A stretch of 64,000 nucleotides of DNA, taken from assembly GCF_057098645.1 (NCBI RefSeq), contig NZ_CM169472.1. One strand, written 5' to 3'. The notes under the pieces were generated by a model. It ran no database searches, was not told the origin of the DNA, and was given only the letters and a program-made list of their open reading frames with translations. The translations under genes and the position numbers were made by a program. Below, piece by piece: positions 29,769-52,706 of this stretch (the first letter of the stretch is position 1; each line of letters opens with the position of its first letter).

Positions 29769-29784
29769 CGGGTTTTGTGCTCCA

Positions 29785-33552: not shown

Positions 33553-33579
33553 TGAAATAGGGGGCTAACGCCCCTATTT

Positions 33580-34362
33580 TTAATCATTTTCTGGTTTGTT
33601 TGAAGTTTCATTTACAGGCTGGATCACATCCTTATTAAAATGGCGCGTTTGTTCGACTTTACCTTTTCTAGAAAGGCCTGCACCTTCTAAAATTGAATCG
33701 ATTTTATCGCCACCATTAGCTAAGAAATGCTTAAAATTTTCCGATGATAACATTTCCATTATAGGCGATGAATGGGTAGCTTCTTCAACAAATCTTAATG
33801 GCGGCTCCTCCAGTCGAGTAAGTGCATTACCAAATAACCTTTGGGTAAAGTCGCTATCAAGTTGGACAGCTTCTCTTCTATATCCCTCATAAGCTTTGGA
33901 TACTGAGGCCTTGAATTCATAATCCTCTGCCAATCTGAATCGCTGACCAATTTGTTTCGTTGCTAACCAAGCAAACCATAATGGTGCTCCAACACTTAAA
34001 ATGGAGAGTAAAAGTTGAATAGCTAACTTTATACCTGATGCGTCAGGGTTTGACAGATATGCTTCGAGAGCATGTAAACGCGTATAACCAACAGCAGCAC
34101 CTGCAACCAAAGCACCTATTAGTCCACATACCCACCAACGTATGCTCCGGTTTAATTTTTCTGCTTTATCTTGAAATGCCCCAGCCAAACCTTTTGAAGT
34201 AGTAGTTCTAAATGCCTCTTCACATTTATTAATATAACCCTGAGCTTCTTCACGGAGAGATTGTAAATAATCTTTTGCATCCTTGCTTGCATTCTGTTTC
34301 AGCGCCAAAATTTCTTGTCTGGCCTCATCTACGATTTTGGAGTTCTCTTCAGTCTCTTTAAG
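33580..34362 (-). pseudogene. 3' part of an IS1-disrupted cargo gene (two-TM protein of unknown function)
   Basis: Frame continues from the 8-bp IS1 target duplication; encodes two hydrophobic helices (WWVCGLIGALVAGAAVGY, LLLSILSVGAPLWFAWLA) and a C-terminal soluble domain. Confidence 0.6.
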
Positions 34363-34377
34363 GGTAATGACTCCAAC

Positions 34378-34881
34378 TTATTGATAGTGTTTTATGTTCA
34401 GATAATGCCCGATGACTTTGTCATGCAGCTCCACCGATTTTGAGAACGACAGCGACTTCCGTCCCAGCCGTGCCAGGTGCTGCCTCAGATTCAGGTTATG
34501 CCGCTCAATTCGCTGCGTATATCGCTTGCTGATTACGTGCAGCTTTCCCTTCAGGCGGGATTCATACAGCGGCCAGCCATCCGTCATCCATATCACCACG
34601 TCAAAGGGTGACAGCAGGCTCATAAGACGCCCCAGCGTCGCCATAGTGCGTTCACCGAATACGTGCGCAACAACCGTCTTCCGGAGCCTGTCATACGCGT
34701 AAAACAGCCAGCGCTGGCGCGATTTAGCCCCGACGTATCCCCACTGTTCGTCCATTTCCGCGCAGACGATGACGTCACTGCCCGGCTGTATGCGCGAGGT
34801 TACCGACTGCGGCCTGAGTTTTTTAAATGGCGGAAAATCGTGTTGAGGCCAACGCCCATAATGCGGGCGGTTGCCCGGCAT
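34378..34881 (-). CDS. insB: IS1 transposase InsB
   Basis: 167-aa [21 protein letters not shown]... matches IS1 InsB. Confidence 0.9.
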
Positions 34882-35075
34882 CCAACGCCATTCATGGCCA
34901 TATCAATGATTTTCTGGTGCGTACCGGGTTGAGAAGCGGTGTAAGTGAACTGCAGTTGCCATGTTTTACGGCAGTGAGAGCAGAGATAGCGCTGATGTCC
35001 GGCGGTGCTTTTGCCGTTACGCACCACCCCGTCAGTAGCTGAACAGGAGGGACAGCTGATAGAAACAGAAGCCAC
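34800..35075 (-). CDS. insA: IS1 InsA
   Basis: 91-aa ORF with zinc-finger [16 protein letters not shown]... matches IS1 InsA. Confidence 0.9.
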
Positions 35076-35130
35076 TGGAGCACCTCAAAAACACCATCAT
35101 ACACTAAATCAGTAAGTTGGCAGCATCACC

Positions 35131-35747
35131 TCTTTAAGCATGCCATTAATATTTCTGCAATGCTCAACTGCGCTATTGTAAACATTTTTAACTTCATCAT
35201 TTGTTTCACGAAGCATTTTTACTGTTGTCGGTAGATTCTCGGCTGCATCATATGCTTCATTTATAGTTTTAATTTTCTCTTCTATATTACCAGTTTCAGC
35301 TGCAATTGCAGATATACCTGAATTATATAATTCTAATCTGCGTAAAATTTGCTTTGGTAATAAATTTCTATCTTTCAGCCTCTCAAATGAAAAAAGGTCA
35401 TTAATCCTATGAGAGATATATAACATTGAAATAACATAAGATGGTATAGCGGTCTGTTGAACTGATGCGTTACCATTGTTTATATGATTAATATTTTGCT
35501 GAGCATGATCCAGAGTGTAAATGAGCGCATCAATTACTGCAATGTCATCTGAAGATGGTACAAATTCCTGCATCTGATTAATTCTATCAGATAACATTTT
35601 TGGTAGTTCTATCAGATCCTCTTTATGTAAAAAAGGAAATGTGTACGGCCCAAGGTTTATAAAATCTTCCACAGGGAATACAAGACCATTAAGTGTTGTA
35701 TGTAAATTATCTAGTTTCTCTTTTAATTCAGTTAGTTTTTCGTTCAT
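35131..35747 (-). pseudogene. 5' part of the IS1-disrupted cargo gene (N-terminal helical domain)
   Basis: About 205 native codons (MNEKLTELKEKLDNL...NINGMLKE), then the reading frame enters the IS1 inverted repeat. Confidence 0.6.
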
Positions 35748-35841
35748 TAAAAAAATCCTTTATGACGCTATAGAACTTCCAGAGTAATCCGATAAAGATA
35801 TCATAAGACAATATTTTGGTATAAACACTTATTGCGCGCGC

Positions 35842-35860
35842 TCGTATCCCCGCCACGCCT
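35842..35860. other. Candidate phage cos site (186-like cohesive end)
   Basis: Minus-strand GGCGTGGCGGGGATACGAG shares its first 13 nt with the recalled 186 cohesive end and resembles that of P2. Confidence 0.45.
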
Positions 35861-36032
35861 GCCCGCTTTATGTAGTGGTTTTCATGCACCTGCATGATCT
35901 ACGCAAAAGCCCGCCAGAACTGGCGGGCCTTAACACAAAAGATCCTCAAACGATCATGCGATCTCATGCAGCATAGACATGCGCGCTTATGCAGAATGTG
36001 CAAAATCGTAACATACTCAGTAAGCGTGAAAA

Positions 36033-36710
36033 CTAGAACGTGACAGCCTTGTCAAAGCCAGAAATAATTGTATAAGAAATAGACGAGTTATCAGCCTTGT
36101 TCACTTTGAACTTGGCACCTTTGTAAGCGATAACGTCACTTCCCTTAGAATCTACAGAAAAATCTGTTGTAAATGCTGCACGAGCCATATCGTTTGCAAA
36201 TTCACGATAGGTGAACTTCATTACACCGCCTGCATTTCCATTGTATTCGATAGTCTTAACCAATGAGTTACTAACTCGACACAGCCCATCAGGAACACGT
36301 TTGATAGAAATTTCTGATGCAGTATAAGAAGTACCATTTGGCGGTGATATCTCATTTTTTGCAGCATCGTAACTAACATAATCAACATAGTTACCGATTT
36401 GCCCATAGAGATTTTTTAACGCAACAGCTTGAGGGTTATGATAATTGCGGTAAATTCCATTCCCCTCACTGCAATATGTACCAGCAGCGATAGAAGACAA
36501 TGCACCATTAGCCGCACCAAGTTCTAGTACGTCCGTTTTAAATCCAGTAGCAGATGTGATAATGGGATCGCCCATGTAGGCGGTAGCACTTTGCCCAATA
36601 GCAGGCTTCACCACTTCAATAGCAGTGATATTTCGGTTAGAAGCATGTGGCACGCAACCAGTTAGGATTACAGCAAGAGATATTGGTAACGCTACATTAT
36701 TAATTTTCAT
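36033..36710 (-). CDS. Lipoprotein of unknown function (prophage cargo next to cos)
   Basis: Signal peptide with lipobox MKINNVALPISLAVILTGC and a Gly/Ser/Thr-rich mature domain; AT-rich. Confidence 0.7.
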   Translation of the reverse strand: MKINNVALPISLAVILTGCVPHASNRNITAIEVVKPAIGQSATAYMGDPIITSATGFKTDVLELGAANGALSSIAAGTYCSEGNGIYRNYHNPQAVALKNLYGQIGNYVDYVSYDAAKNEISPPNGTSYTASEISIKRVPDGLCRVSNSLVKTIEYNGNAGGVMKFTYREFANDMARAAFTTDFSVDSKGSDVIAYKGAKFKVNKADNSSISYTIISGFDKAVTF

Positions 36711-36823
36711 TTTTAGCCTATTATTCTTTTCTTGACAAAAAACAAGGCGATATCCGATTGACATCGCCTCTCACTCATATGTAACCCTTTTTGATTAGTA
36801 AAAACAAGCGTCTATTGACAAAA

Positions 36824-37057
36824 TCAATGCAGCCAGCTGTCGTCTTCCCACACCTTCTGCATAATTTTCATCACTTGTTTTCTTTCTTCGTCCAGTTGCA
36901 GTCCGGTCAGTTCCACACCGTTAGAGCTACCTTTACGGATACGGATTACCGTTTTGGGATACAGGGGGCGCAGATTGCGGTAAAGCTCGGATTCAAGGGC
37001 GTCCAGGGTAGACTGGCTAATCTTCTGCTCTTTATCGATCATTATTTCAATGCGCAT
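36824..37057 (-). CDS. DinI-family protein
   Basis: MRIEIMIDKEQKISQSTLDALESEL...QKVWEDDSW resembles DinI (MRIEVTIAK...ETWESADDW). Confidence 0.7.
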   Translation of the reverse strand: MRIEIMIDKEQKISQSTLDALESELYRNLRPLYPKTVIRIRKGSSNGVELTGLQLDEERKQVMKIMQKVWEDDSWLH

Positions 37058-37067
37058 AAAAGTCACC

Positions 37068-37256
37068 TCAGCTGATGACATCCATTGAGCGGTTGTATTC
37101 GTGGCTTCTGATTTTTGCCATGAGTTCATCAGTCAATTCAGAAACCCACTGCAGAGCCAGCCCCTTCTCTTCATCACTACACTCACTAGCCGCTACAAGC
37201 TTAAGAAAAAAATCAATGCGCTGGAGCTTCAAAGACTCCAAAAAATAGTCCTGCAT
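37068..37256 (-). CDS. Small SOS-controlled protein, possible Tum-like antirepressor
   Basis: 62-aa ORF directly downstream of a LexA box and upstream of the dinI-like gene, the arrangement of the 186 tum operon. Sequence similarity not confirmed. Confidence 0.35.
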   Translation of the reverse strand: MQDYFLESLKLQRIDFFLKLVAASECSDEEKGLALQWVSELTDELMAKIRSHEYNRSMDVIS

Positions 37257-37299
37257 CTTTCCTCCTATGACACCACAAGAAATACTGTATGTATAACCA

Positions 37300-37315
37300 C
37301 TGTTTATATTTACAG
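37300..37315. promoter_or_regulatory. LexA operator (SOS box)
   Basis: CTGTTTATATTTACAG matches the CTGT-N8-ACAG consensus, about 45 bp upstream of the tum-like ORF. Confidence 0.6.
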
Positions 37316-37410
37316 TATATAATAATCTTACTGATGTAAAACGTTTTTTTTACGCTTATCAGCTTGATATGCCTGGTATTATTAAGAGCACGAATTGTTA
37401 ACCAGCGTAA

Positions 37411-39416
37411 TTAATACAGGTTCCGCCACTTATCATCTTCCTGCAAACGCTGGTTCCGATAGAAGATACGCAGGCCTGCTCCTGACGGAATACTGCCGCC
37501 GCGAAGGAGTAAATCGACCTCTTTCTCGCTGCCATCAAATCCTCTGGATTTCAGTTCATAGACGAGCTGCTGTCGTTGATGGTCTGTAATTCGCTGTTTG
37601 TAGTCTCTACGCCGTTTCGGTTTCACCAGACGTAACCTTGCAGCCAGTTCCCGGCGCTCCTTTTTGTTCATACTGTGCAGGTAATCGTGCAACTCCTTGT
37701 CATCCATGCGGGTAAAGTCCGTTCTGGGGTCCCCATCAGCTGATTTATCTTTCTCCTGTTGGTTCAAATTTTCAGCAAGGGGACAGTTATTGCCACGAGT
37801 CCAAGGGGCGCAAGCGCCCTGGTCGGCTGCCGCCTCCTGAACGTCAACGGCCTTACGAACCATTTTCCACTTCACTGCATGAGTACAAATCTTGCCCTCT
37901 GCAATGGGTGACCAGATGCCATAAATACGAATACCGTGATCGCCATAGGCGGTCGGCTCTTCGTTAATTTCATAAGCTGTTCTGATAAGGTGATATTTGC
38001 GGGGAACCAGTACGCCGCCCTGCTTCATAATGTAGGTGGCAAAACAACCAGCATCAGCAGCAGCCAGAATGGCATCAAGGCGCGGGTTATCCAGTACCGG
38101 CGCACCTGCTTTTTTGTCACCCTGTTGCCTTGCCGCCTGACCAGCCAGCAATCGCAATTCACGGTACGCCTGACGCCCCGGAATACCAAAGAAGCGAAAT
38201 TGCTGAACACGATGCAGAGACGCCCAGGCATTAACGTATTCAGCGTTATCACGCAGGGATTTACCCGTTTCCTTGCTGATTTCGCCAGCCAGACCACGCC
38301 CATCAATGTTCTTACTGATGTATTTCGCGATGTAGCTTGTCGGCGTTCCTTTTCGCGGGTTAATCAGCTCAGACTTAAAGCGCGGCCCCGTGTTATTGCC
38401 CAGCTCCTCACGGTCTTCACGGATAGCAAACTTACGCAACAATGCAGTAATGGCGCGGCGGTCTTTTTTGCGCATGAAACACAACAGGTGCCAGTGAACT
38501 GTGCCGTCATGATGCGGCTCAGCCACCCGCACGCCATACCAGCGCAACCCGGCTTTGTGCATCGCCTTACGAAATGCAGCAAACATACCGACCAGATAAT
38601 CGCTGCTTTGTCTTACCGTCGCATTTGTCCATGTCGGGTTGGGTCTGCCGTTATTGAGCGTGGAATGGAAACGTGACGGACAGGTAATGGTGTAGAAAAC
38701 GGCGCAGTCACCGCGCATTTCCGCGATAAGCTCCAGACCTTTAACACAGGCCATCATCTCATTGCGACGATGCGCCGGGTTGCTGCTGCTGGCGTTTACC
38801 ACATCTTCCATATCCAGCGCGTCTCCGTCTTCGTTCACCAGTTCATGAGAACGGAAAAACTCCAGTGACTTACGGCGCTGCTCACGTTTATGCATCACGG
38901 CTTCATAGCTGACATAGGGAGATGCTTTTTTGCTGACCAGGCAGACAGCACGCAACTGCTCTTCCCGCCATTCGCAACGCATCTTCCACAATTTCCGATA
39001 CCACCAGTCGGCGCACAGCATACGCGCCAGCGAACCCGGAATGAGTTCATAGGGCACGGGTTTACGGCGGTTTCTTTTCCGACGGAGTTGCTCAAACGCA
39101 GGCGGGATGACATCCAGACGCAGGGTTTCCGCTGCCACCTTTTCCCATGTCTTGCGGATTTCTTCTGGCTTAACGTCATCGGTGGCATACAAATCACCAC
39201 AAGCTGCATCAAGGCACATACTCATATGCGCAGCTACCAAGGTGGACAGGCGTTTCACCTGATCCTGACTCATTTCAGGCAGGATCAGCAGGCCGTCCAG
39301 CCCTTCATGGCTTGCCATAAAGCGAAAAGATGCAGATAGCTGACTGTCGCGTACATGCTCCAGTCGTTCCAGACATGGCTTAATCGTCTCACGTAAATAG
39401 CGGGAATAAGCCTTTG
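37411..39416 (-). pseudogene. Replication initiation endonuclease gene A, 3' portion (split by IS21-family insertion)
   Basis: 635-aa ORF with rolling-circle initiator motif ([11 protein letters not shown]); frame stays open upstream of the annotated Met as far as the IS boundary. Confidence 0.8.
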
Positions 39417-39515
39417 TGCGTATTCCGCTCTATTCGATCACGGATTGGCATCGAAGTCCGATCAGCGATTCGCATCCATTCGATCAACCGGGAACTTAAC
39501 TTTTTCTACCGCTTT

Positions 39516-40271
39516 TTAACGCGTTTTTTCGCTGCTTTCCACTACCGGGGGATTTTTCCTCAGTGACTCTCCCTGAAGGACCACTCGGTGTGAGTTATGT
39601 ACCAGTCTGTCCAGGATGGCATCTGCTGTTGTTGGGTTCTCCATCAGACCATGCCATTTATCTACCGGGAACTGGCTTACCACTATCGTGCTGCTTTGTC
39701 CGTAACGATCCTCTATGAGCTCCAGAAGGTCATTACACTGGGCGTTACTTAACTGTTCCAGCCCCAGATCGTCCAGGATTAGAACCTGTATTTTTTGCAA
39801 CTGTTTCAGATATTTCAGCCAGCTGCCATCAACACGTCCCTGAGCCAGTTGTTCCAGTAATCGCCCGGTTCTACAGTACCGGACGCTGTGTTTCTGTCGA
39901 CATGCCTGTTCGCCCAGCGCATTGGCTATCCAGCTCTTGCCACATCCTGTCGGACCGGTTATCAGCAGGTTTTTCCTGTGGGTTATGTAGTGGCCGTTCA
40001 GCAGTTCTCTCATCTGTTCAGCCCGCAGACCTCTTGAGGCCGGATAGCGCAGCCCTTCCGGTGTTGCCTGGTATTTCAGGCCGGCATTTTTTCTCAACCG
40101 TGCCACACGGCTGTTTTCCCTGCTCAGAAGCTCGTCATCAACCAGCAGCGTCAGCCTTTCCTCGAACGACAGTTCGTCGTAGGTCTGAGGCGTTTCCCGC
40201 TGCCGTATCAGGCTCCCGGCCATCGCCGGGAGTTTCAGTTGGGTCAGTTTGTTTAACAGGTTATCACTCAT
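39516..40271 (-). CDS. istB: IS21-family helper ATPase IstB
   Basis: Walker A (GPTGCGKS) and Walker B (LILDDLG) motifs; start chosen at MSDNLLNKL. Confidence 0.8.
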   Translation of the reverse strand: MSDNLLNKLTQLKLPAMAGSLIRQRETPQTYDELSFEERLTLLVDDELLSRENSRVARLRKNAGLKYQATPEGLRYPASRGLRAEQMRELLNGHYITHRKNLLITGPTGCGKSWIANALGEQACRQKHSVRYCRTGRLLEQLAQGRVDGSWLKYLKQLQKIQVLILDDLGLEQLSNAQCNDLLELIEDRYGQSSTIVVSQFPVDKWHGLMENPTTADAILDRLVHNSHRVVLQGESLRKNPPVVESSEKTR

Positions 40272-40287
40272 ACTGTTGTTCCTTCTG

Positions 40288-41823
40288 TCAGTGGTAGTAG
40301 CCCGGACCACGCAGGTTTTCATGCTCTGAAGCATATGCCGGATGTTGTTCGCCCTGGCGGGATAATGGAAGCTCCAGGTTCTCCCGATGGTGACGCAGCA
40401 GATTGTCGATAAAGCGTCTGTCAGGGGCGTTATAGTGCAGGGCAACGTAACAGGCCTTTTCCAGCCGTTCCGGGCCGTATTTTTTCTGAAGTGCCAGCAG
40501 CCCCAGAACTGCACGATAAGCCAGTTCCGGATGGGGTTTTGCCTTCAGCATGGATTCAACCACCCGGCCTGTGGACGGGCCCGTACGTTTTCCCTGCTCG
40601 ATCAGGCGTTCCGGTGTCCATGTCCCGTGCTGCCGGTGGCGCTCTGGCATGTGAAGCGGATTGGTTGTGTGTTTATATTCATGTGTGCTGCGCGGATGTT
40701 GCGCCACACACTGCCCCTTGTGCCAGAGCTGTACCACCGACTGCCCCGCCTTCAGTGACAGACGCTGACCGACCAGTTCGTGTGGAACGGAGTACCAGTG
40801 ACGGGCATATTCAACGTGGTAGTCAGGGCCAACCTTCACAGCTTTGTATTCCGTGTATTCATAAGGTGCCAGAGGCAGCGGAGAGAGTGCTGGCGCATCC
40901 AGTATGCGGAAGCGTTCTGCACGGGTTTGATTGCCGTACCCCTTCATTGGCCGGTTATTCATGTCTGTCAGTAACTCCCTAAGGCGCGCATTCAGCGCCC
41001 TGAGCGTGTGGAAGGTTTCATTACGGATGCGGGCAAGAAGCCATCGTTCAACGATGAGGACGCCGTTTTCTGCTTTTGGTTTATCTTTAGGTTTGCGTGG
41101 TCGGGCCGGGATGATAACCGTGCCATAGTGCTCAGCCAGTGCCTGATAACTGTCGTTGATGACAGGCTCATATCGATCGGCCTTTTTCACTGCGCTTCTG
41201 AGGTTATCGGGGATGAGCAGCTTCGGTACGCCGCCCAGGAAGGTCAGGCAACGGCTGTGGGCATTTAACCATGACATCATGTCCTGACCTTCGCACGCTT
41301 CAACGTAGGTATAGTTGGACGCCCCCATTACGGCCACGAAGATTGCCACGCGGCGTATCTCACCGGTGTCCGGATTAATAACAGGAACCGTAGGACCACA
41401 GAAGTCGATAAAAAGCTTTTCGCCGGCACGATGCTCCTGGCGCATGGAGAGACGTCGCGTTTTTTTCCACTCCCGGTAGCAACGGCAGAAGTGCGAGTAT
41501 CCCATCGCTTTGTTACCCGCCTGTGCCTTGTATTCCATCCACAACAGTTGCCGCGTCACACCTGGTTTTCTCATTTCCGTATCGAAGTACAACATGTCAG
41601 GCATTACAAGCTCTGATGCAAAGGTGTCTTTGGGCGGAAAAATGAGTTTCTCCAGCGTGTCATGGGATATATCAGCAGGTAATGGCCATGACAGAGAAGA
41701 GGCTTTGAAGCGGGCAAGAACCTCAAAAACGGTTGAGGCGCTGATGTGTAACGTCAGTCCGATACAACGGTTAGTCAGCTTCTTGTCGAACTTGAGCTGA
41801 AGGATCTTAAAACAGGTTTCCAT
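40288..41823 (-). CDS. istA: IS21-family transposase IstA
   Basis: About 512-aa product with integrase-type catalytic core; start chosen at METCFKILQL. Confidence 0.8.
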   Translation of the reverse strand: METCFKILQLKFDKKLTNRCIGLTLHISASTVFEVLARFKASSLSWPLPADISHDTLEKLIFPPKDTFASELVMPDMLYFDTEMRKPGVTRQLLWMEYKAQAGNKAMGYSHFCRCYREWKKTRRLSMRQEHRAGEKLFIDFCGPTVPVINPDTGEIRRVAIFVAVMGASNYTYVEACEGQDMMSWLNAHSRCLTFLGGVPKLLIPDNLRSAVKKADRYEPVINDSYQALAEHYGTVIIPARPRKPKDKPKAENGVLIVERWLLARIRNETFHTLRALNARLRELLTDMNNRPMKGYGNQTRAERFRILDAPALSPLPLAPYEYTEYKAVKVGPDYHVEYARHWYSVPHELVGQRLSLKAGQSVVQLWHKGQCVAQHPRSTHEYKHTTNPLHMPERHRQHGTWTPERLIEQGKRTGPSTGRVVESMLKAKPHPELAYRAVLGLLALQKKYGPERLEKACYVALHYNAPDRRFIDNLLRHHRENLELPLSRQGEQHPAYASEHENLRGPGYYH

Positions 41824-42055
41824 AGTGCTCCTGGATTTTCTCTTTCTGGACATTGACGTCTCCACTGGTTTAAACACGGCAATGGAGACTGTGGTGAAAA
41901 GAGTTAATTCCCGGAGTGACTGGCAGGATGCCAATCAATGATCGGAAGCATGCCAAATCGTGATCGATTGTGATGCCAAACTGTGATCGGAGATGGATGC
42001 CAAATCATGATCGATTCGAATGCCAAACTGCGATCGATTCAGATGCCATTTTGCA

Positions 42056-42470
42056 CCTTTGGCCTGCCCAGGCTGCTGAAGTATTCAATACGTTGCATCA
42101 GCGGCTTGCTGATATGGGAAGGCTGGGCGTTGACGTCCGCCAGAATGACCATGTCTGAATTAAAACGCTGCTGCTCATGCGCCAGCTTTGCCCGGCTAAT
42201 GAGCTTATCCTGCTCCATTTCGCGCTGGACAGGATCACGTGATTCATTAAAGAAATAACGCTCCCAGACCTGATCACTCAGTGCCTCGCGGCGCAACTGT
42301 TCCTGCTCGTTATCGGCAGCGTACAGAGTGATCAGGTTTGAAAGCGTAGAAACCGGCGCAACTTCCGCCGGGTCCAGATAAGGGTTAATGGCCTTTTTCG
42401 GGCTGTTCCATGAGAACGCTGCGGCAGCCTCGTTAAAGCCGCAGCAGTTGTTCATATCGGCATGACTCAT
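42056..42470 (-). pseudogene. Replication gene A, 5' portion (upstream of IS insertion)
   Basis: ORF is in frame with 37411-39416 once the IS and one copy of the target duplication are removed; its last 8 codons in the track come from the IS end. Confidence 0.6.
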
Positions 42471-43324
42471 GCACGTACTCCGTACACGGCAGAACTATCC
42501 ACGCCACGCGAATAATCAAATCCCATCCAGCAGCGCGGCCCGGAAACAGCAATGATTTCTGTTGCTGATTTACCCTCGCCAGCTGCCACACCGATGCTGC
42601 GTTTTACCTTGATATAGTGGTGAGTAAAATTGCGATACAGCGAACGGATCAGGGATGTGTCACTGTTAGAAACAATGACCGGATGTCCTTCTGATGACCG
42701 ATGTTCAAGAACGGATGCCAGGTGATACTGGTCATCTTCAGTGAAACCATCAGTGTGATAGCCGGAAAACGTACCGTCATACGGCGGATCGCAATACACC
42801 ACATCTCCCGCCTTCAACATCGCCAGCGTTTCATCAAAGCTGGCGCAGATAAACGTTGCTCGCTGGGCCTTTTCTGCAAATGCGCGAATTTCTTTTTCAG
42901 GGAAATACGGATTTTTATAATTACCGTAGGGAATGTTGAAATGCCCGCTCTTGTTATAGCGACATAAACCACGGTAACCGTGACGATTGAGATACAGGAA
43001 ATATACCGCTTTCATGAAATCAGTAATTTCAGTTGAGTAATTAAACTCCTGCCTTATGTTGTAATAAGCCACCTCCCTGTTTGCGATCTCAAATAAAACT
43101 CTGGCGCGAGATATAAACGATTCACAATCAGCGGCAACCTTTTTATAGAGGTTGATTAAATCAGGATTAATATCCGCAACCAGATAGCTGGGATAATCCG
43201 TCTCCATCATCACAGCACAGGACCCCGCGAAAGGTTCAACCAGTCGCGGGCCAGCAGGAAGATGTTTTTTCAGTTCGGACATAATGGCGGTTTTATTTCC
43301 CGCCCATTTCAGGATGGTGCTCAT
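42467..43324 (-). CDS. Dam-family DNA N6-adenine methyltransferase (phage-encoded orphan)
   Basis: [11 protein letters not shown]... N-terminus, SAM-binding FAGS motif and catalytic DPPY motif; stop overlaps the gene A start. Confidence 0.75.
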
Positions 43325-43548
43325 ACAACACCTCCGTTGTAATGTTTGCCTTTCAGCTCTGCGATTTCCTGACAGGTAATGCAAAGCTGCACACCCGGAA
43401 TGGCGCGGCGGCGTGCTGGCGGAATTGGCGCTTCACATTCAATACAAAGCACGCGAGACACGCCCGGTGTTTTGGCACGGGCAGCACGGATATGGCGCTG
43501 GCGTTCTTCTTCAACGCGCTGCTGTACGAGATCCATTGCATCAGCCAT
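43321..43548 (-). CDS. TraR/DksA-type C4 zinc-finger protein
   Basis: 75-aa ORF with CIECEAPIPPARRRAIPGVQLCITCQ. Confidence 0.6.
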   Translation of the reverse strand: MADAMDLVQQRVEEERQRHIRAARAKTPGVSRVLCIECEAPIPPARRRAIPGVQLCITCQEIAELKGKHYNGGVV

Positions 43549-43787
43549 TAGTGGATCTCCTGCGCTTCGCTCTGGATTGCTTCAGCAGTCACACGCAGCA
43601 GTTCTGCTGCTTCGACGTGGTTTAGCTGGCGGGATGTGATATGACACGCCAGGCTATCAAGGCGAGCTGCCATTGCTTCAGCCCTTGCCCGGCGTTCTTC
43701 CAGACGAGCCTCTGTCAGTAAAATATTAAGCCCTGCGTCATCCGGTCCGGTTTTAGTCGTGAGGATTTCAATATTACGCATAATCAA
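43548..43787 (-). CDS. Hypothetical early-region protein
   Basis: 79-aa ORF in the B-A interval; no recognisable motif. Confidence 0.4.
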   Translation of the reverse strand: MIMRNIEILTTKTGPDDAGLNILLTEARLEERRARAEAMAARLDSLACHITSRQLNHVEAAELLRVTAEAIQSEAQEIH

Positions 43788-43848
43788 TTCTCCTGAATTT
43801 AGATAAAGGGATGCCCGGCGGGTTTACGCCATTAATTTCATTAGTTGG

Positions 43849-44190
43849 TTAATTCGGCATGGTTAGCCGTCTGGGAAATAAGCTCACCACTGCACGAAAA
43901 TGATTCATTGCTTTAATCAACTCCCGCTTTTCGTCAGTGGTCAGCTCATTAATGCTGGTGCTATGACGTTCAGCTGGAATTTTTGCCATAAAGAATATGG
44001 CAGCCAGTGCCCTTTTATTTTGTTCATTATTGATATCCCATGGATCACGCATATCTTTAATAAACCGCTCAAGCTCTGACTCAATATTCAGGCCAAAAAC
44101 TTTCGCCCTTAATTCCGCAATGTGATTAAGTCCATTCAGGCGTTCACCGGGGCTTAATGGAACAGTCGCCGCAGTGCCTTCAATAGCCAT
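43849..44190 (-). CDS. Hypothetical early-region protein
   Basis: 113-aa ORF in the B-A interval. Confidence 0.4.
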   Translation of the reverse strand: MAIEGTAATVPLSPGERLNGLNHIAELRAKVFGLNIESELERFIKDMRDPWDINNEQNKRALAAIFFMAKIPAERHSTSINELTTDEKRELIKAMNHFRAVVSLFPRRLTMPN

Positions 44191-44384
44191 TTGTTCCCCC
44201 GTTTTTTCGTAGATAGTTCTGCCAGCAATTCATCTTGTGAACGGCACGGATGCCAGCGTTTACCATCCTCACCCATGATCCAGCCGTGACCGTAGTGCAT
44301 TGCCGGGCTTTGTTTTACCAGCAGCGATGCAAATGATGGTTCTTTCGTCAGCATAAGCACCTCACAGCAAACCGAATGAAGCAC
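44154..44384 (-). CDS. Hypothetical small protein
   Basis: 76-aa ORF overlapping both neighbours; coding status uncertain. Confidence 0.3.
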   Translation of the reverse strand: MLHSVCCEVLMLTKEPSFASLLVKQSPAMHYGHGWIMGEDGKRWHPCRSQDELLAELSTKKRGNKWLLKALRRLFH

Positions 44385-44877
44385 CGAGGCCAGTCACGGT
44401 ATCAACTGCACTCGCCATCGCAGGATTAGCCTGTAAACGGGCCTGCAATGAAACAGCCGCCAGCGCCATCAGTCGTGTTACAGAGTTAATGCTGCTGATA
44501 GCATCACGACGACCGGCACAGGTTTTTACATCGCCAGATACCGCACCTGCAGCAACACGCCCGATCTCTGCGGTTGCACTCATGACGTAATGTGGCAGTT
44601 TCTCTTTTGCCACCTCATTAATCGGTACACATGGCAGACAATGAATCTGTGCCAGAAAACCATCTACCAGCGTTGAATCTTCAGTCAGATCGGTAAGCAG
44701 CCAGATTTCTGGTGCGGTTAATAAATGAGGTTGAGCTGGGTTCAGCTTGTTCCGCAGAATCTGCACATTCATGCCAGCACGTTCTGCCAGTTGCACCAGG
44801 TTGTGGCGCAATGCGAATGCACGACAGGCTTCATCAAAATGTGGATGTTTGGAAACTTGGTAATCAAACATGGTCAA
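44362..44877 (-). CDS. Replication protein gpB-like
   Basis: 171-aa ORF downstream of cox, upstream of A, as in P2/186. Confidence 0.55.
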
Positions 44878-44903
44878 TGCCTCTGATGTATCTCAGAATC
44901 GAA

Positions 44904-45125
44904 CTAATTAAGGTTTAGATTGCATTCTGAAAGCGCATCAACGGTCATTGCTGCTATGTTGATCATCACTTTTTCGCGTTTTTTATCTTTGCGCAGACGG
45001 TGACGGATAAGGCGTCCATCAGCCAACATGTCATTGATGGTATCGATGGATAGCCCTGTCAGCTCGCTATAGCGTTCAATAGTCACATGAGGCGTGGTAA
45101 GAGTGATTGAAATGTTAGGTCTCAT
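44904..45125 (-). CDS. Cox/Apl-like excisionase and switch regulator
   Basis: 73-aa HTH protein divergent from the repressor gene (...[22 protein letters not shown]...). Confidence 0.55.
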
Positions 45126-45244
45126 GATGCAACATTCCTCGTTTAATGATGATTAATCAGGACGAATACGGATCGTTTGTATTTTGTGAACACCATAAAC
45201 ATACGATCGCACAGTGAAATCTTCAAGATAAAAGTTCACTTGGA

Positions 45245-45820
45245 GTGACCATGAATTTGGAGAAAGGCGGACGAGGCGCTATAGAGCGCATGGTAGAAGC
45301 TTATGGATTCAAGACTCGACAGGCGTTGTGCGATCATTTAGGAATCTCTAAAAGTACACTCGCCACACGCTACATGCGTGACTCATTCCCAGCAGAATGG
45401 GTAATCCAGTGCGCCCTTGAAACAGGCACCTCGCTTAATTGGCTCACAACCGGGCATGGTTCAAAGCAAACTTCAGGTAATACAAATACTATGGAAGTTG
45501 CTAAATATGTATTATCTGATGGGGCCTTGTGTGAAGACGGTTTTTATATTTTCGATAGAGAATTTCTACCGTCGGCATTCAAGAATCTTTTTGTAATCAC
45601 AGATAATAATTCTGAATTTATTTGTGATAAGGAATTTGATGATATACGTGATGGTAAATGGGTAATAAGTATTGATGGCGAAATAACGATCCGTGACATT
45701 ACTCGTTTACCCGGTGGAAGAATCTTCGTCGAGGGTGGAAACAGAGCCTTCGAATGCAAGATAGAAGACATTGAAATAATTGGTAAAATTATAAGCTTAA
45801 CAGTCAAGTATGTTAAATAG
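45245..45820 (+). CDS. 186-type CI immunity repressor
   Basis: 191-aa ORF; N-terminus ...MVEAYGFKTRQALCDHLGISKSTLATRYMRD...CALETGTSLNWLTTGHG resembles 186 CI; followed by int on the same strand. Confidence 0.7.
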   Translation: MTMNLEKGGRGAIERMVEAYGFKTRQALCDHLGISKSTLATRYMRDSFPAEWVIQCALETGTSLNWLTTGHGSKQTSGNTNTMEVAKYVLSDGALCEDGFYIFDREFLPSAFKNLFVITDNNSEFICDKEFDDIRDGKWVISIDGEITIRDITRLPGGRIFVEGGNRAFECKIEDIEIIGKIISLTVKYVK

Positions 45821-45835
45821 TACCGGGAGGAAATT

Positions 45836-46027
45836 ATGCTTGGTAAGGTATTTTTTGTGGTTTTGTCATGTTCTTTGTTATTAAACCCACTAGCTACCTA
45901 TGCTAGAAATTATCCCTGCTCAGGGAAAAAGGGAGGTGTTTCTCACTGTACCTCTGATGGCAAATTCGTTTGCAATGATGGAACTATTAGTAAATCCAAA
46001 AAAATCTGTACTAAAAACTCACGATAA
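45836..46027 (+). CDS. Small secreted cysteine-rich peptide (lysogenic-operon cargo)
   Basis: 63-aa ORF with signal peptide ([19 protein letters not shown]) and about 40-aa mature part with 5 Cys and many Lys/Gly; RBS ggagg upstream. Confidence 0.45.
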
Positions 46028-46215
46028 CTTTTGCTTTTATATCTGCGCCTAAAATAAAAATGAGCCACAGGTTAACCGCAAAAGTTACATGCTCACATAG
46101 CAAAAAGAATAGCCTACTTCATTATGGCTTCAGTGAGATGTATGGTCGCAGGATTTCATACATTGAAACTGGTTATACATACAGTAAAAATGCTCTCTAT
46201 TGGAGGGCATTTTTT

Positions 46216-47247
46216 ATGGCTGTACGAAAACTCACCACAGGAAAATGGCTTTGCGAATGTTACCCCGCCGGACGTAGTGGGCGTCGTGTGCGTAAACAAT
46301 TCGCCACCAAAGGCGAAGCACTGGCTTTTGAGCGTCACACGATGGAAGAAACCGAAGCAAAGCCCTGGCTGGGTGAATCAGTGGATCGTCGAACACTGAA
46401 AGACGTGGTTGAGCTATGGTTCAAACTACATGGTAAATCACTGACTGCTGGGCAGCATGTCTATGACAAATTGCTGCTGATGGTTGACGCTCTGGGCAAT
46501 CCCCTTGCAACTGATCTCACATCTAAAATGTTTGCCCACTATCGAGATAAACGCCTGACAGGTGAGATCTACTTCAGCGAGAAATGGAAGAAAGGAGCAA
46601 GCCCGGTCACCATTAACCTGGAGCAAAGCTATCTAAGTAGTGTTTTTAGCGAACTATCCCGCCTGGGCGAATGGTCGTATCCGAACCCACTGGAGAACAT
46701 GCGAAAATTCACCATCGCAGAAAAAGAGATGGCATGGCTTACCCATGAGCAGATTGTTGAATTGCTGGCTGATTGCAAACGTCAGGACCCAATTCTGGCA
46801 CTGGTAGTTAAGATATGCTTAAGCACAGGCGCACGTTGGCGTGAAGCCGTAAATCTTACCCGCTCACAGGTGACCAAATACCGAATTACCTTTGTAAGAA
46901 CGAAGGGGAAGAAAAACAGAAGCATCCCTATCAGTAAAGAGCTTTACGAAGAGATCATGGCGCTTGATGGGTTCAATTTCTTTACAGACTGCTATTTTCA
47001 ATTTTTATCCGTGATGGAAAAAACGTCTATCGTGCTCCCTCGCGGTCAACTGACACACGTTCTGCGCCATACGTTTGCGGCGCACTTCATGATGTCGGGT
47101 GGAAATATCCTGGCCTTACAAAAAATTCTCGGGCATCACGATATAAAAATGACTATGCGTTACGCACATCTGGCACCGGATCACCTGGAAACTGCATTAC
47201 GGTTTAATCCGCTGGCAACACTACCAACATCAATAGCAAGTTTTTGA
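46216..47247 (+). CDS. int: Tyrosine integrase (P2/186 family)
   Basis: 343-aa product from MAVRKLTTGKW...; C-terminal catalytic region (HVLRHTFA...MRYAHL) with conserved R/H/Y residues. Confidence 0.85.
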   Translation: MAVRKLTTGKWLCECYPAGRSGRRVRKQFATKGEALAFERHTMEETEAKPWLGESVDRRTLKDVVELWFKLHGKSLTAGQHVYDKLLLMVDALGNPLATDLTSKMFAHYRDKRLTGEIYFSEKWKKGASPVTINLEQSYLSSVFSELSRLGEWSYPNPLENMRKFTIAEKEMAWLTHEQIVELLADCKRQDPILALVVKICLSTGARWREAVNLTRSQVTKYRITFVRTKGKKNRSIPISKELYEEIMALDGFNFFTDCYFQFLSVMEKTSIVLPRGQLTHVLRHTFAAHFMMSGGNILALQKILGHHDIKMTMRYAHLAPDHLETALRFNPLATLPTSIASF

Positions 47248-47305
47248 AAATGCGTATTTTGCCCTGTTGAGCTAATATTCTTTTTTTTCACATGGAGCAC
47301 TATCA

Positions 47306-47575
47306 ATGAATAAGTTTCAGCATCAGGGAGCGGAATTGCGCAACAGAGCCAAAGAATTGGCTTTATCCGTACTTAAAACTCACCCAGATGCCCAAAAAAA
47401 CGGCAACGGCGTTAAGCAAGCTGAGGTATTTCGTCTAAGCGGCCTCGATTGGGGAGAAAAACGGAAAGCAACAAGTTCGAACCAACAATATTGGGTTGTT
47501 GCACTATTGCGTGAACTAGAAGAGGAGGGGTTAGTCGAACAGATTGAAGATAGAGGCCCCTGGCGTCTAAGGTAA
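47306..47575 (+). CDS. Hypothetical protein between int and attR, possible winged-helix regulator
   Basis: 89-aa ORF; C-terminal YWVVALLRELEEEGLVEQIEDRGPWRL resembles a winged-helix recognition element. Confidence 0.35.
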   Translation: MNKFQHQGAELRNRAKELALSVLKTHPDAQKNGNGVKQAEVFRLSGLDWGEKRKATSSNQQYWVVALLRELEEEGLVEQIEDRGPWRLR

Positions 47576-47581
47576 AACAAG

Positions 47582-47603
47582 TGGCGACAAAGTGGCGGCA
47601 GCG
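47582..47603. repeat. 22-bp direct repeat, putative integrase arm-type site (copy 2)
   Basis: TGGCGACAAAGTGGCGGCAGCG, 21 of 22 identical to 11391-11412. Confidence 0.4.
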
Positions 47604-47691
47604 GTTGGCATTACCCCGTAATAACCACCACTGACCACCAACCCAACTTATTGTTTTTACTCTAACTTATTGTTTTCATTAACCCATTTAC

Positions 47692-47712
47692 ATAAATGAC
47701 CGTTTTGTTATC
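47692..47712. other. attR junction (phage / host hchA)
   Basis: hchA frame resumes exactly here (..aaatgac cgt ttt gtt atc = N D R F V I). Confidence 0.5.
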
Positions 47713-48018
47713 TCCCTTTGCCACGGCCCGGCGGCTTTTCTGGCGCTTCGCCACGGCGATAACCCACTGAATGGTTATTCCATTTGCGCATTCCCAGACG
47801 CCGCAGACAAACAAACGCCAGAGATAGGCTATATGCCGGGTCATCTCACCTGGTACTTCGGCGAAGAGCTGAAGAAAATGGGCATGAACATTATTAATGA
47901 CGACATCACCGGGCGAGTACATAAGGACCGTAAAGTTCTCACCGGCGACAGTCCTTTCGCAGCGAATGCGTTGGGTAAACTGGCGGCGCAGGAAATGCTG
48001 GCAGCTTACGCGGGTTAA
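47701..48018 (+). pseudogene. hchA: hchA 3' fragment
   Basis: Encodes RFVISLCHGPAAFLALRHGDNPLNGYSICAFPDAADKQTPEIGYMPGHLTWY...AAYAG, the HchA C-terminus including the catalytic Cys region. Confidence 0.85.
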
Positions 48019-48125
48019 TCCCTGTTACGTTTTAATGTAAGCGCATAATCAATCGCAGCCGCGTTAGTATTCACGACGTGGCTGCGTTTTTTCACGGTTA
48101 ATTTATGGCGTACTGAAGCCCTATG

Positions 48126-49484
48126 TTAATTTCTTTGCGGCAACGTAATCCGGAACACATTATGCTTATTGAGATAGTGATACGTAGCACTTCCCCCATG
48201 TAATTCGGCAATCGCTTTGACTAAAGAAAGGCCTAGTCCCTGACCTACGGAATGACGCGAATTATCTCCCCGCCAAAATCTACGGAAGAGTTTTTCAGGC
48301 TCATTAATTTTCGTTCCAGGGCTGGCGATATCAATATTAAGAGATCCGTTAGTATCAAGAAAACTGGTTATATGAATGCGCGATTTTTCTGGTGAATATC
48401 GAATGGCGTTAACAATAAGATTCGATAACATTCGTTGCAGTAAAATTTTATCCGCATAAATTTGCTGATTGCACTCGACCTTAAAGCAAATCTCTTTCTC
48501 GTCTGAAAGGTATTCAAGATAGTCCAACAAATTTTCGACTTCCTTATTGAGAGAAAGCGATTCCAGTTTCACCAAAACATTATTTTTATCTGCCCTGGCA
48601 AGAAACAGTATGTTCTCTGTTAACCGCGAAATATTTTCCAGCTCTTCAATGTTTCCGGCAATTGTTTTTTGATATTCAGCGATACTTCTGGTTTGACTGA
48701 GCGTAACCTGATTCTGACCCAGTAATGCATTAATTGGCGTTCTAAGTTCATGAGCGAGATCGTCAGCAAACTGACTTAGACGCTCAAAATCTTTGACTAA
48801 AGCATGATGCATTTTATTCAACGCCTGCCCAAGCGGTTTTAGTTCTCTCGGTAATGCGCTAACCTCAACAGGCTCTCGGCTATCGTTATAATTCAGCGCT
48901 TCCGTTACACCACTCAACTTTTTGATCTCTCGTAACCCCGTTCGGATTAACAGCGGACTTAATACTGAGCACAGTATAATGGCGACAATGCAAATTATAA
49001 TGCTATTGATTTTATACTGTTCAAGCATGTTATGTCTGGCTGAAGCCAATTTAGCCACAGTAACCGTTAATGATGGCGAAACTTCATCAATATTAATTCG
49101 TAAAGCATCTATCTCTGTATCATTAATAATGCTTCTGTAAATGCCAGCTGCACTGATTGTCTCACTAGCAGGTATGTTATTTAACATGCCATCACTGACA
49201 TTTGTCCGGTTAACAATTTTATTGATGCTATCACCATGAATGATCAAGATATCCTGACTAACATCCATCATCCGGTTAAAGTACACAGGTAACGTATCTG
49301 GATTTACCCCATCAATTAACAACTGCTTGATCTGTGCTGTCCGGTTAATGAGTGTTGTATCATCGCGCCATTTCAACTCACTTGCCAGGCCATTATAGAG
49401 AGTCCAGACAATTCCAGCGCCAGCAACAGACAGCAGCAATATAAAAAGCAAGGTTAAACGGACGGTTATAGACAATCTTTTCAT
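48126..49484 (-). CDS. hprS: Two-component sensor histidine kinase HprS (YedV)
   Basis: 452-aa ORF with N-terminal TM, HAMP, H-box (LAHELRTP) and ATPase G-boxes. Confidence 0.85.
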   Translation of the reverse strand: MKRLSITVRLTLLFILLLSVAGAGIVWTLYNGLASELKWRDDTTLINRTAQIKQLLIDGVNPDTLPVYFNRMMDVSQDILIIHGDSINKIVNRTNVSDGMLNNIPASETISAAGIYRSIINDTEIDALRINIDEVSPSLTVTVAKLASARHNMLEQYKINSIIICIVAIILCSVLSPLLIRTGLREIKKLSGVTEALNYNDSREPVEVSALPRELKPLGQALNKMHHALVKDFERLSQFADDLAHELRTPINALLGQNQVTLSQTRSIAEYQKTIAGNIEELENISRLTENILFLARADKNNVLVKLESLSLNKEVENLLDYLEYLSDEKEICFKVECNQQIYADKILLQRMLSNLIVNAIRYSPEKSRIHITSFLDTNGSLNIDIASPGTKINEPEKLFRRFWRGDNSRHSVGQGLGLSLVKAIAELHGGSATYHYLNKHNVFRITLPQRN

Positions 49485-50155
49485 TATTTTTTTACCGCTA
49501 CGAACGAATATCCCATCCCACGGATTGTGGCAATTAGCTTTTCAGGAAAAGGATCATCAACTTTTGCGCGGAGCCTGCGAATGGCGACATCCACCGTATT
49601 GGTATCACTATCAAAGTTGATTCCCCAAATTTCACTCGCAATAACCGTTCTGGGTATAATTTCGCCAGCTCTGGAGGCCAGTAGCCAAAGTAACTGAAAC
49701 TCCTTGCGCGTCAGTGTAATACTGATATTGTCCCTGCTCACACTTTGACTAACAGAGTCCATTCTTAAGCCGCTGATTTCTAATATTGAATTCAAAGCGT
49801 GATGTTGCCTTAATTGTGCCCGAACCCTTGCCAGCAACTCAGAAAATGAAAAAGGTTTTACCAGATAATCATTTGCTCCACTGTCCAGCCCTCTGACTCT
49901 GTCATCGACAGAATCCCTTGCAGTAAGGCAAATAACAGGGGTTTGCTTTGCCGTTCTTAACGTTTGTAAGATCTGCCAGCCATCCATACCCGGAAGCATA
50001 ATATCCAGAATGATCAATGCATAATCATCCTTCAGCGCAAGATAAAGCCCATCTCTGCCATCAGAAACGGCATCAATGACATAACCCGCTTCGGAAAGCC
50101 CCTGCGTTACCCACTCCTGGGTCCTTTGATTATCTTCAATAAGTAAAATCTTCAT
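49484..50155 (-). CDS. hprR: OmpR-family response regulator HprR (YedW)
   Basis: 223-aa product from MKILLIEDN...; receiver domain plus winged-helix output. Confidence 0.85.
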   Translation of the reverse strand: MKILLIEDNQRTQEWVTQGLSEAGYVIDAVSDGRDGLYLALKDDYALIILDIMLPGMDGWQILQTLRTAKQTPVICLTARDSVDDRVRGLDSGANDYLVKPFSFSELLARVRAQLRQHHALNSILEISGLRMDSVSQSVSRDNISITLTRKEFQLLWLLASRAGEIIPRTVIASEIWGINFDSDTNTVDVAIRRLRAKVDDPFPEKLIATIRGMGYSFVAVKK

Positions 50156-50287
50156 GAAAATAATATGCCATAAATCATATGTTATAGAAACAGCCTGGTT
50201 CATTACAAAATTGTAATGCTGCTGTAAGGTTACCCTGGACGCTTTTTCGCTATCCTCAAAACTCATTCACATGACAAGGATATAAAC

Positions 50288-50701
50288 ATGTTAAAGCGTT
50301 ATTTAGTACTCTCCGTAGTAACGGCTGCATTTTCATTACCTTCTTTGGTCTATGCTGCACAACAAAACATTCTTAGCGTGCACATTTTGAACCAGCAAAC
50401 AGGAAAACCCGCTGCCGACGTGACAGTCACTCTTGAAAAGAAAGCGGACAACGGCTGGTTACAACTTAATACCGCCAAAACAGATAAGGATGGACGAATT
50501 AAGGCACTGTGGCCCGAGCAAACTGCAACTACGGGCGATTACCGTGTCGTATTTAAAACCGGGGACTATTTCAAGAAACAAAATCTTGAAAGTTTCTTCC
50601 CTGAGATCCCCGTTGAATTTCATATTAATAAAGTGAACGAGCATTATCATGTGCCTTTATTACTTAGCCAATATGGGTATTCAACCTATCGTGGCAGTTA
50701 A
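50288..50701 (+). CDS. hiuH: 5-hydroxyisourate hydrolase (transthyretin-like periplasmic protein)
   Basis: 137-aa ORF with signal peptide and C-terminal YRGS motif typical of HIU hydrolases. Confidence 0.85.
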
Positions 50702-50803
50702 TGCATAAATATGTAAAAGCAGATCTCTGCTACTGTTAGGGAGGACACTCCCTGACAGATTAACAGTAAACGGCTCTTGCTGGCTAACGACAAAAAAGTG
50801 TGA

Positions 50804-51814
<1,011 letters not shown>

Positions 51815-52450
51815 ATGCGTCTGACAGCAAAACAGGTGACATGGCTGAAAGTTTGCCTGCATCTTGCCGGATTGTTGCCGTTTCTCTGGCTGGTCTGGGC
51901 GATCAATCACGGTGGACTGGGTGCCGATCCGGTGAAAGATATTCAGCATTTTACCGGTCGCACTGCACTGAAATTTTTGCTGGCGACCTTGTTAATCACA
52001 CCTCTGGCACGCTACGCAAAACAGCCGTTATTGATACGCACTCGCCGCCTGTTAGGATTATGGTGCTTTGCCTGGGCGACACTGCATTTAACAAGTTACG
52101 CATTGCTGGAGCTGGGCGTGAATAATCTGGCGTTATTAGGTAAGGAGTTAATTACCCGGCCTTATTTAACGTTAGGTATTATCAGCTGGGTAATTTTGCT
52201 TGCTTTAGCGTTCACTTCAACCCAGGCGATGCAGCGAAAACTCGGCAAGCACTGGCAACAGTTGCATAATTTCGTCTATCTTGTCGCGATCCTGGCCCCA
52301 ATACATTATCTGTGGTCAGTGAAGATTATTTCACCGCAGCCGCTCATCTACGCTGGGCTGGCTGTACTGCTTTTAGCCTTACGGTATAAGAAGTTGCGTT
52401 CCCTTTTTAACCGGTTACGCAAGCAGATTCACAACAAATTATCTGTATAA
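51815..52450 (+). CDS. msrQ: Haem-binding membrane subunit MsrQ (YedZ)
   Basis: 211-aa polytopic membrane protein, translationally coupled to msrP. Confidence 0.85.
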
Positions 52451-52672: not shown

Positions 52673-52706
52673 CACATCATATACATTAACTCTGGAGGAA
52701 ACTGTT

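Follow-up and report, generated by a model that had tools for sequence, protein, structure and literature searches.

An intact orphan Dam-family methyltransferase gene as accessory cargo in the early lytic operon of an IS-disrupted 186-like prophage

In a 64,000-nucleotide stretch of contig NZ_CM169472.1 (assembly GCF_057098645.1; this whole stretch is hereafter called the window), a 186-like (Peduoviridae) prophage carries, directly ahead of replication gene A in its early lytic operon, an intact gene for a Dam-family adenine methyltransferase, dam. The explanation that we favor, and in which we have good confidence, is that this gene encodes a functional, GATC-specific orphan Dam that is accessory cargo of the phage, would play a protective role during lytic growth and would be silent in the lysogen. 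In the strain studied here, the intact dam is most likely unexpressed cargo. The coordinates of all the features discussed below are collected in Table 1.

Table 1. Features of the prophage region, numbered from the first nucleotide of the window.
Feature	Position	Strand	Remarks
186-like prophage (approximate limits)	11325..47690		about 36.4 kb including two IS; between hchA and hprS
IS1	34363..35129		splits the gene for a 463-aa protein (intact form)
cos core GGCGTGGCGGGG	35848..35859	-	with its A-proximal flank, spans 35848..35963
cos-flank GATC sites	35896, 35941, 35952, 35960		between the orf97-like gene and the cos core
Terminator-like hairpin	35909..35929		in the cos flank
Gene A, 3' part (Phage_GPA)	37411..39416	-	PF05840, E 1.2e-127; colinear with the intact HS/TL012 gene
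ISSso4-family IS21-like element	39417..42055	-	2639 bp; 6-bp target duplication CCTTTG
istB	39516..40514	-	within the ISSso4-family element
istA	40288..41934	-	within the ISSso4-family element
Gene A, 5' fragment	42056..42470	-	about 138 native codons; reading runs into the IS and stops at 42039
dam	42467..43324	-	285-aa orphan Dam-family N6-adenine DNA methyltransferase; ORF and family matches
TraR/DksA-type C4 zinc-finger gene	43321..43548	-	directly upstream of dam; PF01258, TIGR02419
Remaining early lytic genes upstream of dam, whole span	43548..45125	-
DUF2732 gene	43548..43781	-	Pfam / HS RefSeq annotation
DUF5347 gene	43849..44190	-	Pfam / HS RefSeq annotation
fil	44154..44354	-	PF10893
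cII	44362..44871	-	PF06892
apl-like gene	44904..45125	-	early operon upstream of dam; HS RefSeq annotation, 186 order
CI repressor gene	45251..45820	+	lysogeny module, divergent from the early operon
Integrase gene	46216..47247	+	lysogeny module (45251..47247), with a small ORF between CI and integrase

The dam reading frame runs from an ATG at position 43324 to a stop codon at 42469-42467 and encodes 285 residues. An alternative TTG start would give a protein of 305 residues; the ATG is the start annotated in identical prophages, and homologues begin there too. The first-pass annotation had given no strand for the gene, which lies on the minus strand. The product matches the Pfam family of D12-class N6-adenine methyltransferases, PF02086, over the whole profile (positions 1-253 of 253; E 2.7e-76; 257 bits for a cut-off of 22), and likewise matches NCBIfam TIGR00571 'dam' (321 bits for a cut-off of 114.85); its best PADLOC model is that of an orphan methyltransferase (E 1.7e-111). 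Among solved homologues it matches the EcoDam, DpnM (2dpm) and T4 Dam families, with an E value of 5.5e-74 to the E. coli Dam structures (PDB 2G1P and 4GOL), and it shares 48% identity with EcoDam over 258 aligned residues. With 289.2 bits against the housekeeping-Dam equivalog NF008152, whose cut-off is 441, the protein is a phage paralogue and not the orthologue of the chromosomal dam.

The catalytic motif IV, DPPY, lies at residues 179-182 (YCDPPYDG) and is found in 115-116 of the 117 homologues of the family alignment. AdoMet motif I, FAGS, lies at residues 32-35 (EPFAGSCAV), where F32-A-G-S35 pairs with F35-V-G-A of EcoDam, and the acidic residue of motif II, D51, pairs with EcoDam D54; the phenylalanine of motif I (EcoDam F35) and the aspartate of motif II are invariant across the family. 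The C-terminal tail is longer than that of EcoDam and poorly conserved. The gene is intact and 100% identical to copies from undisrupted prophages. The first-pass annotation had proposed a Dam-family enzyme from DPPY and FAGS, and had named a mutated catalytic motif as one of the observations that would overturn this proposal; both motifs are present, the two family profiles are matched in full, and the careful alignment leaves DPPY and the AdoMet motif intact.

The prophage occupies a site between hchA and hprS that is uninterrupted in E. coli O145:H28 strains, the sequence of which matches the prophage flanks. The same prophage is found in E. coli HS and TL012, with 99.9-100% identity over the early region, the HS and TL012 copies adjoining rcdA, unlike the hchA-hprS insertion here. 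Its interior is colinear with the TL012 prophage with the exception of two IS elements, and compared with the HS and TL012 copies there are exactly two extra segments in the window, an IS21-like element and an IS1. The IS21-like element splits gene A at about codon 138 of 804, 804 residues being the length of the intact A of E. coli HS. The 143-residue reading frame at 42039..42470 is thus the start of A running into the IS, and the 635-residue reading frame at 37411..39318 is the remainder of A. Because the IS21-family element interrupts replication gene A and IS1 interrupts another gene, the prophage, which carries no intact copy of A, is probably replication-defective. Both insertions had been missed in the first-pass annotation.

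The early region is organized as a 186-like early lytic operon: apl, cII, fil, (DUF2732), the zinc-finger gene, cargo and A follow one another divergently from cI-int, an order that agrees both with the curated phage 186 record and with the RefSeq annotation of the identical prophage. The genes at its end are tightly packed. The stop codon of the zinc-finger gene overlaps the start codon of dam (ATGA at 43324-43321), and the stop codon of dam overlaps the start codon of A (ATGA at 42470-42467). A dam stop/A start overlap, as ATGA or GTGA, is found in 85 related dam-positive loci, and 54 further dam-positive loci have a gap of about 8 nucleotides; a tight dam-A coupling is therefore the rule. 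In the phage 186 record, translation to the end of the gene that precedes A appears to be necessary for A translation. Coupling of dam to gene A had already been claimed; the ATGA overlap on which it depends is present, but the A concerned is a 5' fragment only.

The slot that dam occupies is variable. Among the relatives surveyed, which were IMG/VR loci recruited with A proteins and a Dam homologue, the zinc-finger gene and A lie between 0 and about 3.3 kb apart. The slot holds either nothing or, depending on the locus, an ASCH/DUF3850 protein, an RNase_T-type (DnaQ-like) exonuclease, DUF5405, a PAPS-reductase domain protein, a second, different D12 methylase, a C5-cytosine methylase or proteins that match no family. 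Enzymes that modify DNA or act on nucleic acids are thus frequent in this slot, and dam is one among its several alternative cargos. In phage 186 the same position, between A and a zinc-finger homologue annotated as a non-essential DksA-like zinc-finger protein, is taken by orf82-orf84, which are also non-essential and the last of which is also translationally coupled to A; however, these genes comprise an exonuclease-like gene, DUF5405 and a PAPS-reductase-like gene in place of dam. A comparable operon has been described in a related Klebsiella prophage, in which ORFA, CII, DUF2724, DUF5347, DUF2732 and TraR/DksA are found in this order together with a DNA adenine methylase gene (PMC7826664), a gene order that matches the early operon of the window. 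The Yersinia phage vB_YenM_42.18, considered as a further and independent case of dam preceding A, was dropped, as its Dam-like match is not annotated as one gene.

The position of dam suggests when it would be expressed. In the phage 186 record, pR is repressed by CI, and a consensus scan, which is a weak test, found no sigma-70-like promoter on the coding strand within the early operon. Because dam lies inside this CI-repressed operon and no promoter of its own was found, we infer that it would be silent in the lysogen and made together with A on entry to lytic growth, whether by induction or by infection; this timing is taken from phage 186, whose immunity region does not align with that of the present prophage. 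A promoter-like match antisense to dam (42894..42921, plus strand) is meaningless, with 3 sites found against 5.0 expected from shuffled sequences, and the GATC sites at 45171 and 45205 could not be placed relative to the 186 operators, as the pR/pL regions are heteroimmune and unalignable.

During lytic growth, the phage enzyme would keep the fast-replicating phage DNA fully GATC-methylated once the host Dam becomes limiting, and such a limitation of the host Dam has been reported for higher-copy DNA. Genomes packaged in this state would resist methylation-sensitive restriction enzymes that cut at GATC in the next host, and replicating phage DNA would be spared the processes, such as those of SeqA and MutH, that target GATC in its hemimethylated or unmethylated form. 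Phages commonly encode Dam homologues; the Dam of phage P1 methylates GATC in vivo, and that of T4 blocks restriction in vitro, its role in vivo being described as unclear. This protective role is a generic one and only a candidate for P2-like phages, and it presupposes that a second Dam is of benefit in Dam-positive E. coli.

A more specific role may be suggested by the sequence beside cos. The sites at 35952 and 35941 form a GATC-N7-GATC pair, about 85-95 bp from the cos cut, within the densest GATC cluster of the window once the IS21 ends are excluded; the conserved form of the pair is GCAT-GATC-N5-AG-GATC-G. The comparison covered 255 related loci whose cos flank is of this type; they represent 174 distinct sequences. 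The pair is kept in 159 of the 174, with 32 different spacers, and the eight GATC columns are 94-99% conserved (mean 0.965), as against 0.67-0.77 for the first five spacer columns and an overall mean of 0.78. Where dam status is known, the pair is present in 111 distinct dam-positive flanks and absent from 13, and present in 4 distinct dam-negative flanks and absent from 64, an association that is confounded by lineage, the loci having been recruited with three queries and belonging to a few clades. No GATC occurs in the equivalent 146 bp of phage 186, a phage devoid of dam. The two sites of the pair are about one helical turn apart, a spacing that suits SeqA binding. Phage P1, which controls pac cleavage through its own Dam, needs Dam methylation at pac for its packaging. 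The cos-adjacent pair is a side lead, as a candidate target in cis of Dam methylation: dam and the pair may form a functional unit in a large P2/186-like group, full methylation or SeqA binding to hemimethylated sites gating cutting by terminase or transcription termination.

This proposal would add to the protective role rather than replace it, and we regard it as unlikely. Within the cos-flank type of the window, 4 of 6 dam-negative loci keep the pair (9 of 9 under a looser criterion), whereas 5 of the 6 dam-positive loci with other flank types are without it; the pair goes with the sequence type of the cos flank and not with dam as such. In addition, a repeated GCATGA motif, conserved in its own right, overlaps the first GATC of the pair, and the host Dam could methylate these sites as well. 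A literature search for Dam or GATC at cos sites returned nothing relevant. In P1 the link between methylation and packaging is established, whereas in the present prophage it is a lead only.

The residues of the enzyme speak strongly for GATC as its target. The dam product was aligned with 116 homologues (117 family members), using EcoDam numbering. K9, W10, F35, D54, R95, Y119, L122, R124, N126, N132, P134, Y138 and DPPY are conserved in the product and in at least 97% of the 117 proteins, and six of the seven residues by which EcoDam reads GATC (K9, Y119, N120, L122, R124, P134 and Y138) are kept. In EcoDam, the guanine of the fourth (G:C) base pair is read by R124, a discrimination that is lost in R124A; the first base pair is recognized by K9 and Y138, and the inner ones are contacted by L122 and P134, with Y119 intercalated between the inner A:T pairs and N120 making a hydrogen bond to a base (PMC4417163). 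The exception is N120, which corresponds to R118 in the dam product, a change fixed across the 117 family members. Equally fixed is the replacement by N135 of R137, which we take to be a further DNA contact. Given the 48% identity to EcoDam and the conservation of all the GATC-reading residues checked except N120, GATC is a strong default, and we consider it very probable that the enzyme would recognize this sequence. The first-pass annotation had held that specificity could not be read from the sequence, which is true in the strict sense but too pessimistic in view of this conservation.

A recognition sequence other than GATC, or broader than it, would allow the enzyme to protect against restriction outside the coverage of the host Dam. 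The fixed N120R and R137N changes, the first of which affects a base-contacting residue, point in this direction, as do the score below the housekeeping-Dam cut-off and the fact that the D12 family is not uniformly GATC-specific, M.EcoRV being an example. However, the discriminating residues R124, L122, P134, K9, Y138 and Y119 are invariant or nearly so, and EcoDam, DpnM and T4 Dam are all GATC enzymes, although the last two are far more distant relatives of the dam product. We therefore judge a different or broader target to be quite improbable. An altered flank preference or a relaxed specificity is conceivable given N120R and R137N; a weaker variant is that these family-wide changes may confer a flank preference or a processivity unlike those of the host Dam. 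In the literature searched, no measured recognition site was found for any enzyme of this exact subfamily.

The methylase might instead be expressed in the lysogen and alter host gene expression, a form of epigenetic lysogenic conversion that the first-pass annotation had suggested. Orphan methylases can regulate genes, and Dam overproduction has phenotypes: Dam that is made in excess or by a phage methylates the msDNA of a retron toxin-antitoxin system and thereby triggers it, so that such a Dam can be a liability. But the reading frame of dam overlaps those of its neighbours within the early lytic operon, no promoter of its own could be detected, and the host Dam already methylates more than 99% of the GATC sites. 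Likewise, a different prophage Dam homologue of E. coli EC958 is transcribed at a low level and has no assignable motif; this enzyme, M.EcoMIV, is a 254-residue protein from a Mu-like prophage and was rejected as direct evidence, serving as an analogy only. With host GATC sites methylated to this extent and the gene in a CI-repressed operon, an effect on host expression is very unlikely. For the same two reasons, a comparison of the methylomes of the lysogen and of a cured strain would probably show nothing.

That dam belongs to a restriction-modification system can be practically dismissed: Dam-family methylases do serve GATC restriction systems, DpnII for example, but (i) both neighbours of dam, the zinc-finger gene and A, are phage genes joined to it by overlapping stop and start codons, so that the cognate endonuclease expected beside a type II methylase is not there, (ii) the identical annotated prophage has no endonuclease besides terminase and replication proteins, (iii) the reading frames of unknown function in the cargo regions have no nuclease or restriction match, and (iv) the best PADLOC model is of the orphan class. 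In RefSeq, the identical but intact prophage is annotated with only the standard P2/186 morphogenesis, lysis and regulatory genes and a few hypothetical ones. No restriction gene was found within the prophage in this annotation or in family scans, in agreement with the earlier statement that no cognate restriction gene lies nearby. For the unknown cargo frames (the IS1-split gene both as it stands and in its intact 463-residue form, the orf97-like gene and small ORFs), scans for nuclease and defence domains gave no nuclease or restriction match, the sole hits being a weak MukB/JetC-like coiled-coil (E 6e-4) and a sub-threshold DUF4126. As it has no partner endonuclease, dam is an orphan. GATC is not avoided in the prophage, with 3.21 sites per kb compared to 3.2-3.3 per kb in the host flanks.

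The favored reading, that of a phage-borne, GATC-specific orphan Dam, places the enzyme among known systems. It shares with EcoDam the fold family, the linear order of motifs and the AdoMet site in addition to the DPPY motif and the conserved DNA-reading residues; it differs in being non-orthologous, with R and N at the positions of N120 and R137 and a longer tail, and in being carried by a phage, where its operon can be repressed and its translation is linked to that of a replication gene. The Dam enzymes of P1 (Dmt) and T4 are, like it, orphan GATC methylases from phages of Dam-positive hosts, but they are distant in sequence (E 5e-18 and about 25% identity for T4 Dam) and differ in context and timing. 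Closer at hand is the retron Ec67 prophage. One member of the 90%-identity cluster of the dam product is labelled by its source as 'retron EC67 DNA adenine methylase', and the prophage setting is of the same 186-related kind, although that prophage carries a retron whereas the one described here does not. Dam activity was reportedly observed for the retron Ec67 prophage methylase by Hsu, Inouye and Inouye in 1990, and Dodd and Egan are said to have placed retron Ec67 in a 186-related prophage in 1996.

The family is widespread. An annotated protein of E. coli HS (ABV05271.1 / WP_000104158.1) is identical to the dam product, the exact sequence is present on 132 contigs of the public protein collection, and its 90%-identity cluster, named 'DNA adenine methylase', has 4038 members. 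A copy of dam at least 80% identical at the DNA level is found in 1229 of 5426 complete E. coli genomes, all but two of these at 90% or more, and in nearly every case the annotation places the copy between a TraR/DksA gene and one for a replication endonuclease. More widely, over 6000 database proteins across the Enterobacterales match the dam product at E <= 1e-40; 54 phage records, with hosts in Escherichia, Klebsiella, Salmonella and Yersinia and including a Felsduovirus, carry this dam at 80-99% identity, and 1118 phage records encode some Dam homologue. A literature search for WP_000104158 or STM2730 returned nothing relevant. Already known and annotated as a matter of routine, the prophage dam is an accessory gene belonging to a very common family of prophages.

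Since the phage-borne orphan Dam is a textbook category, the finding as such matters little. Its use is at the level of the strain, in which the prophage is crippled by two IS and its methylase would contribute no further motif to the methylome. Possible novelty is confined to the GATC pair beside cos: if the methylation state of the pair were shown to be read, phages of Dam-positive hosts would have a concrete reason for keeping a Dam of their own, and methylation-gated packaging would extend from P1 to cos-type phages.

The interval between the zinc-finger gene and gene A, in which the prophage dam gene lies, proved to be a variable cargo slot in the related IMG/VR loci (L007-L366), ranging from 0 to ~3.3 kb. 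The alternative occupants of this slot include ASCH/DUF3850, DUF5405, an RNase_T exonuclease, a PAPS-reductase-like protein, a second D12 methylase type, a C5-cytosine methylase and unknown proteins. Other arrangements of this Dam were also encountered. In three of the matching database proteins (P0022, P0023 and P0094; 456-496 aa) this Dam (PF02086) is fused to the phage late-control D domain (PF05954); these fusions probably represent what deletions have left of such prophages in other E. coli genomes. Yersinia phage vB_YenM_42.18 (L006, 3501..4280) carries a Dam-like sequence with 53% identity immediately 5' of gpA. The record does not annotate it as one gene, which may reflect either a gap in the annotation or a pseudogene.

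The prophage studied here is located between hchA and hprS, with host dcm in the left flank. The near-identical copies of E. coli HS and TL012 adjoin rcdA, and this phage therefore occurs at two distinct chromosomal locations. The gene split by IS1 (uninterrupted in E. coli HS: WP_001003256.1) is positioned between the portal gene and cos, and its product yielded only weak MukB/JetC-like coiled-coil and sub-threshold DUF4126 family matches. Dodd and Egan are said to have placed, in 1996, the retrons of 186-related prophages at the portal-cos position. The late region contains a resolvase/invertase-family recombinase gene, which the TL012 copy likewise has; as this gene adjoins tail-fibre-like segments, its location suggests an invertible host-range segment.

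Features of the prophage and its flanks (window coordinates)
Feature	Position	Remarks
Left flank	1..11324	dcm within 5000..11324
Prophage	11325..47690	
Resolvase/invertase-family recombinase	18702..19790	late region; adjoins tail-fibre-like segments
IS1	34363..35129	interrupts 463-aa hypothetical protein gene; flanking ORFs 33580..34308 and 35109..35747
cos core GGCGTGGCGGGG and flank	35848..35963	four GATC sites within adjoining 110 bp
GATC-N7-GATC pair	35952, 35941	
ISSso4-family IS21-like element	39417..42055	interrupts replication gene A; target duplication CCTTTG
GATC sites in its end repeats	39436, 39460, 39482; 41940, 41962, 41985, 42009, 42032	
apl-like/cI intergenic region	45126..45250	GATC at 45171 and 45205
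Right flank	47691..64000	

GATC is the presumed target of the prophage Dam. The GATC-N7-GATC pair beside cos is conserved: among 174 distinct related cos flanks, 159 retain it, although the spacer comes in 32 different versions. The pair and dam occur together, an association confounded by lineage. The apl-like/cI intergenic region (~120 bp), which constitutes the lysis-lysogeny switch, contains two GATC sites versus ~0.4 expected. This region did not align with the phage 186 switch. Finally, each end of the IS21-like element carries 3-5 tandem repeats of ~22-24 bp, with one GATC per repeat. As every terminal repeat carries the site, the transposase-binding repeats of this element may be Dam-sensitive.
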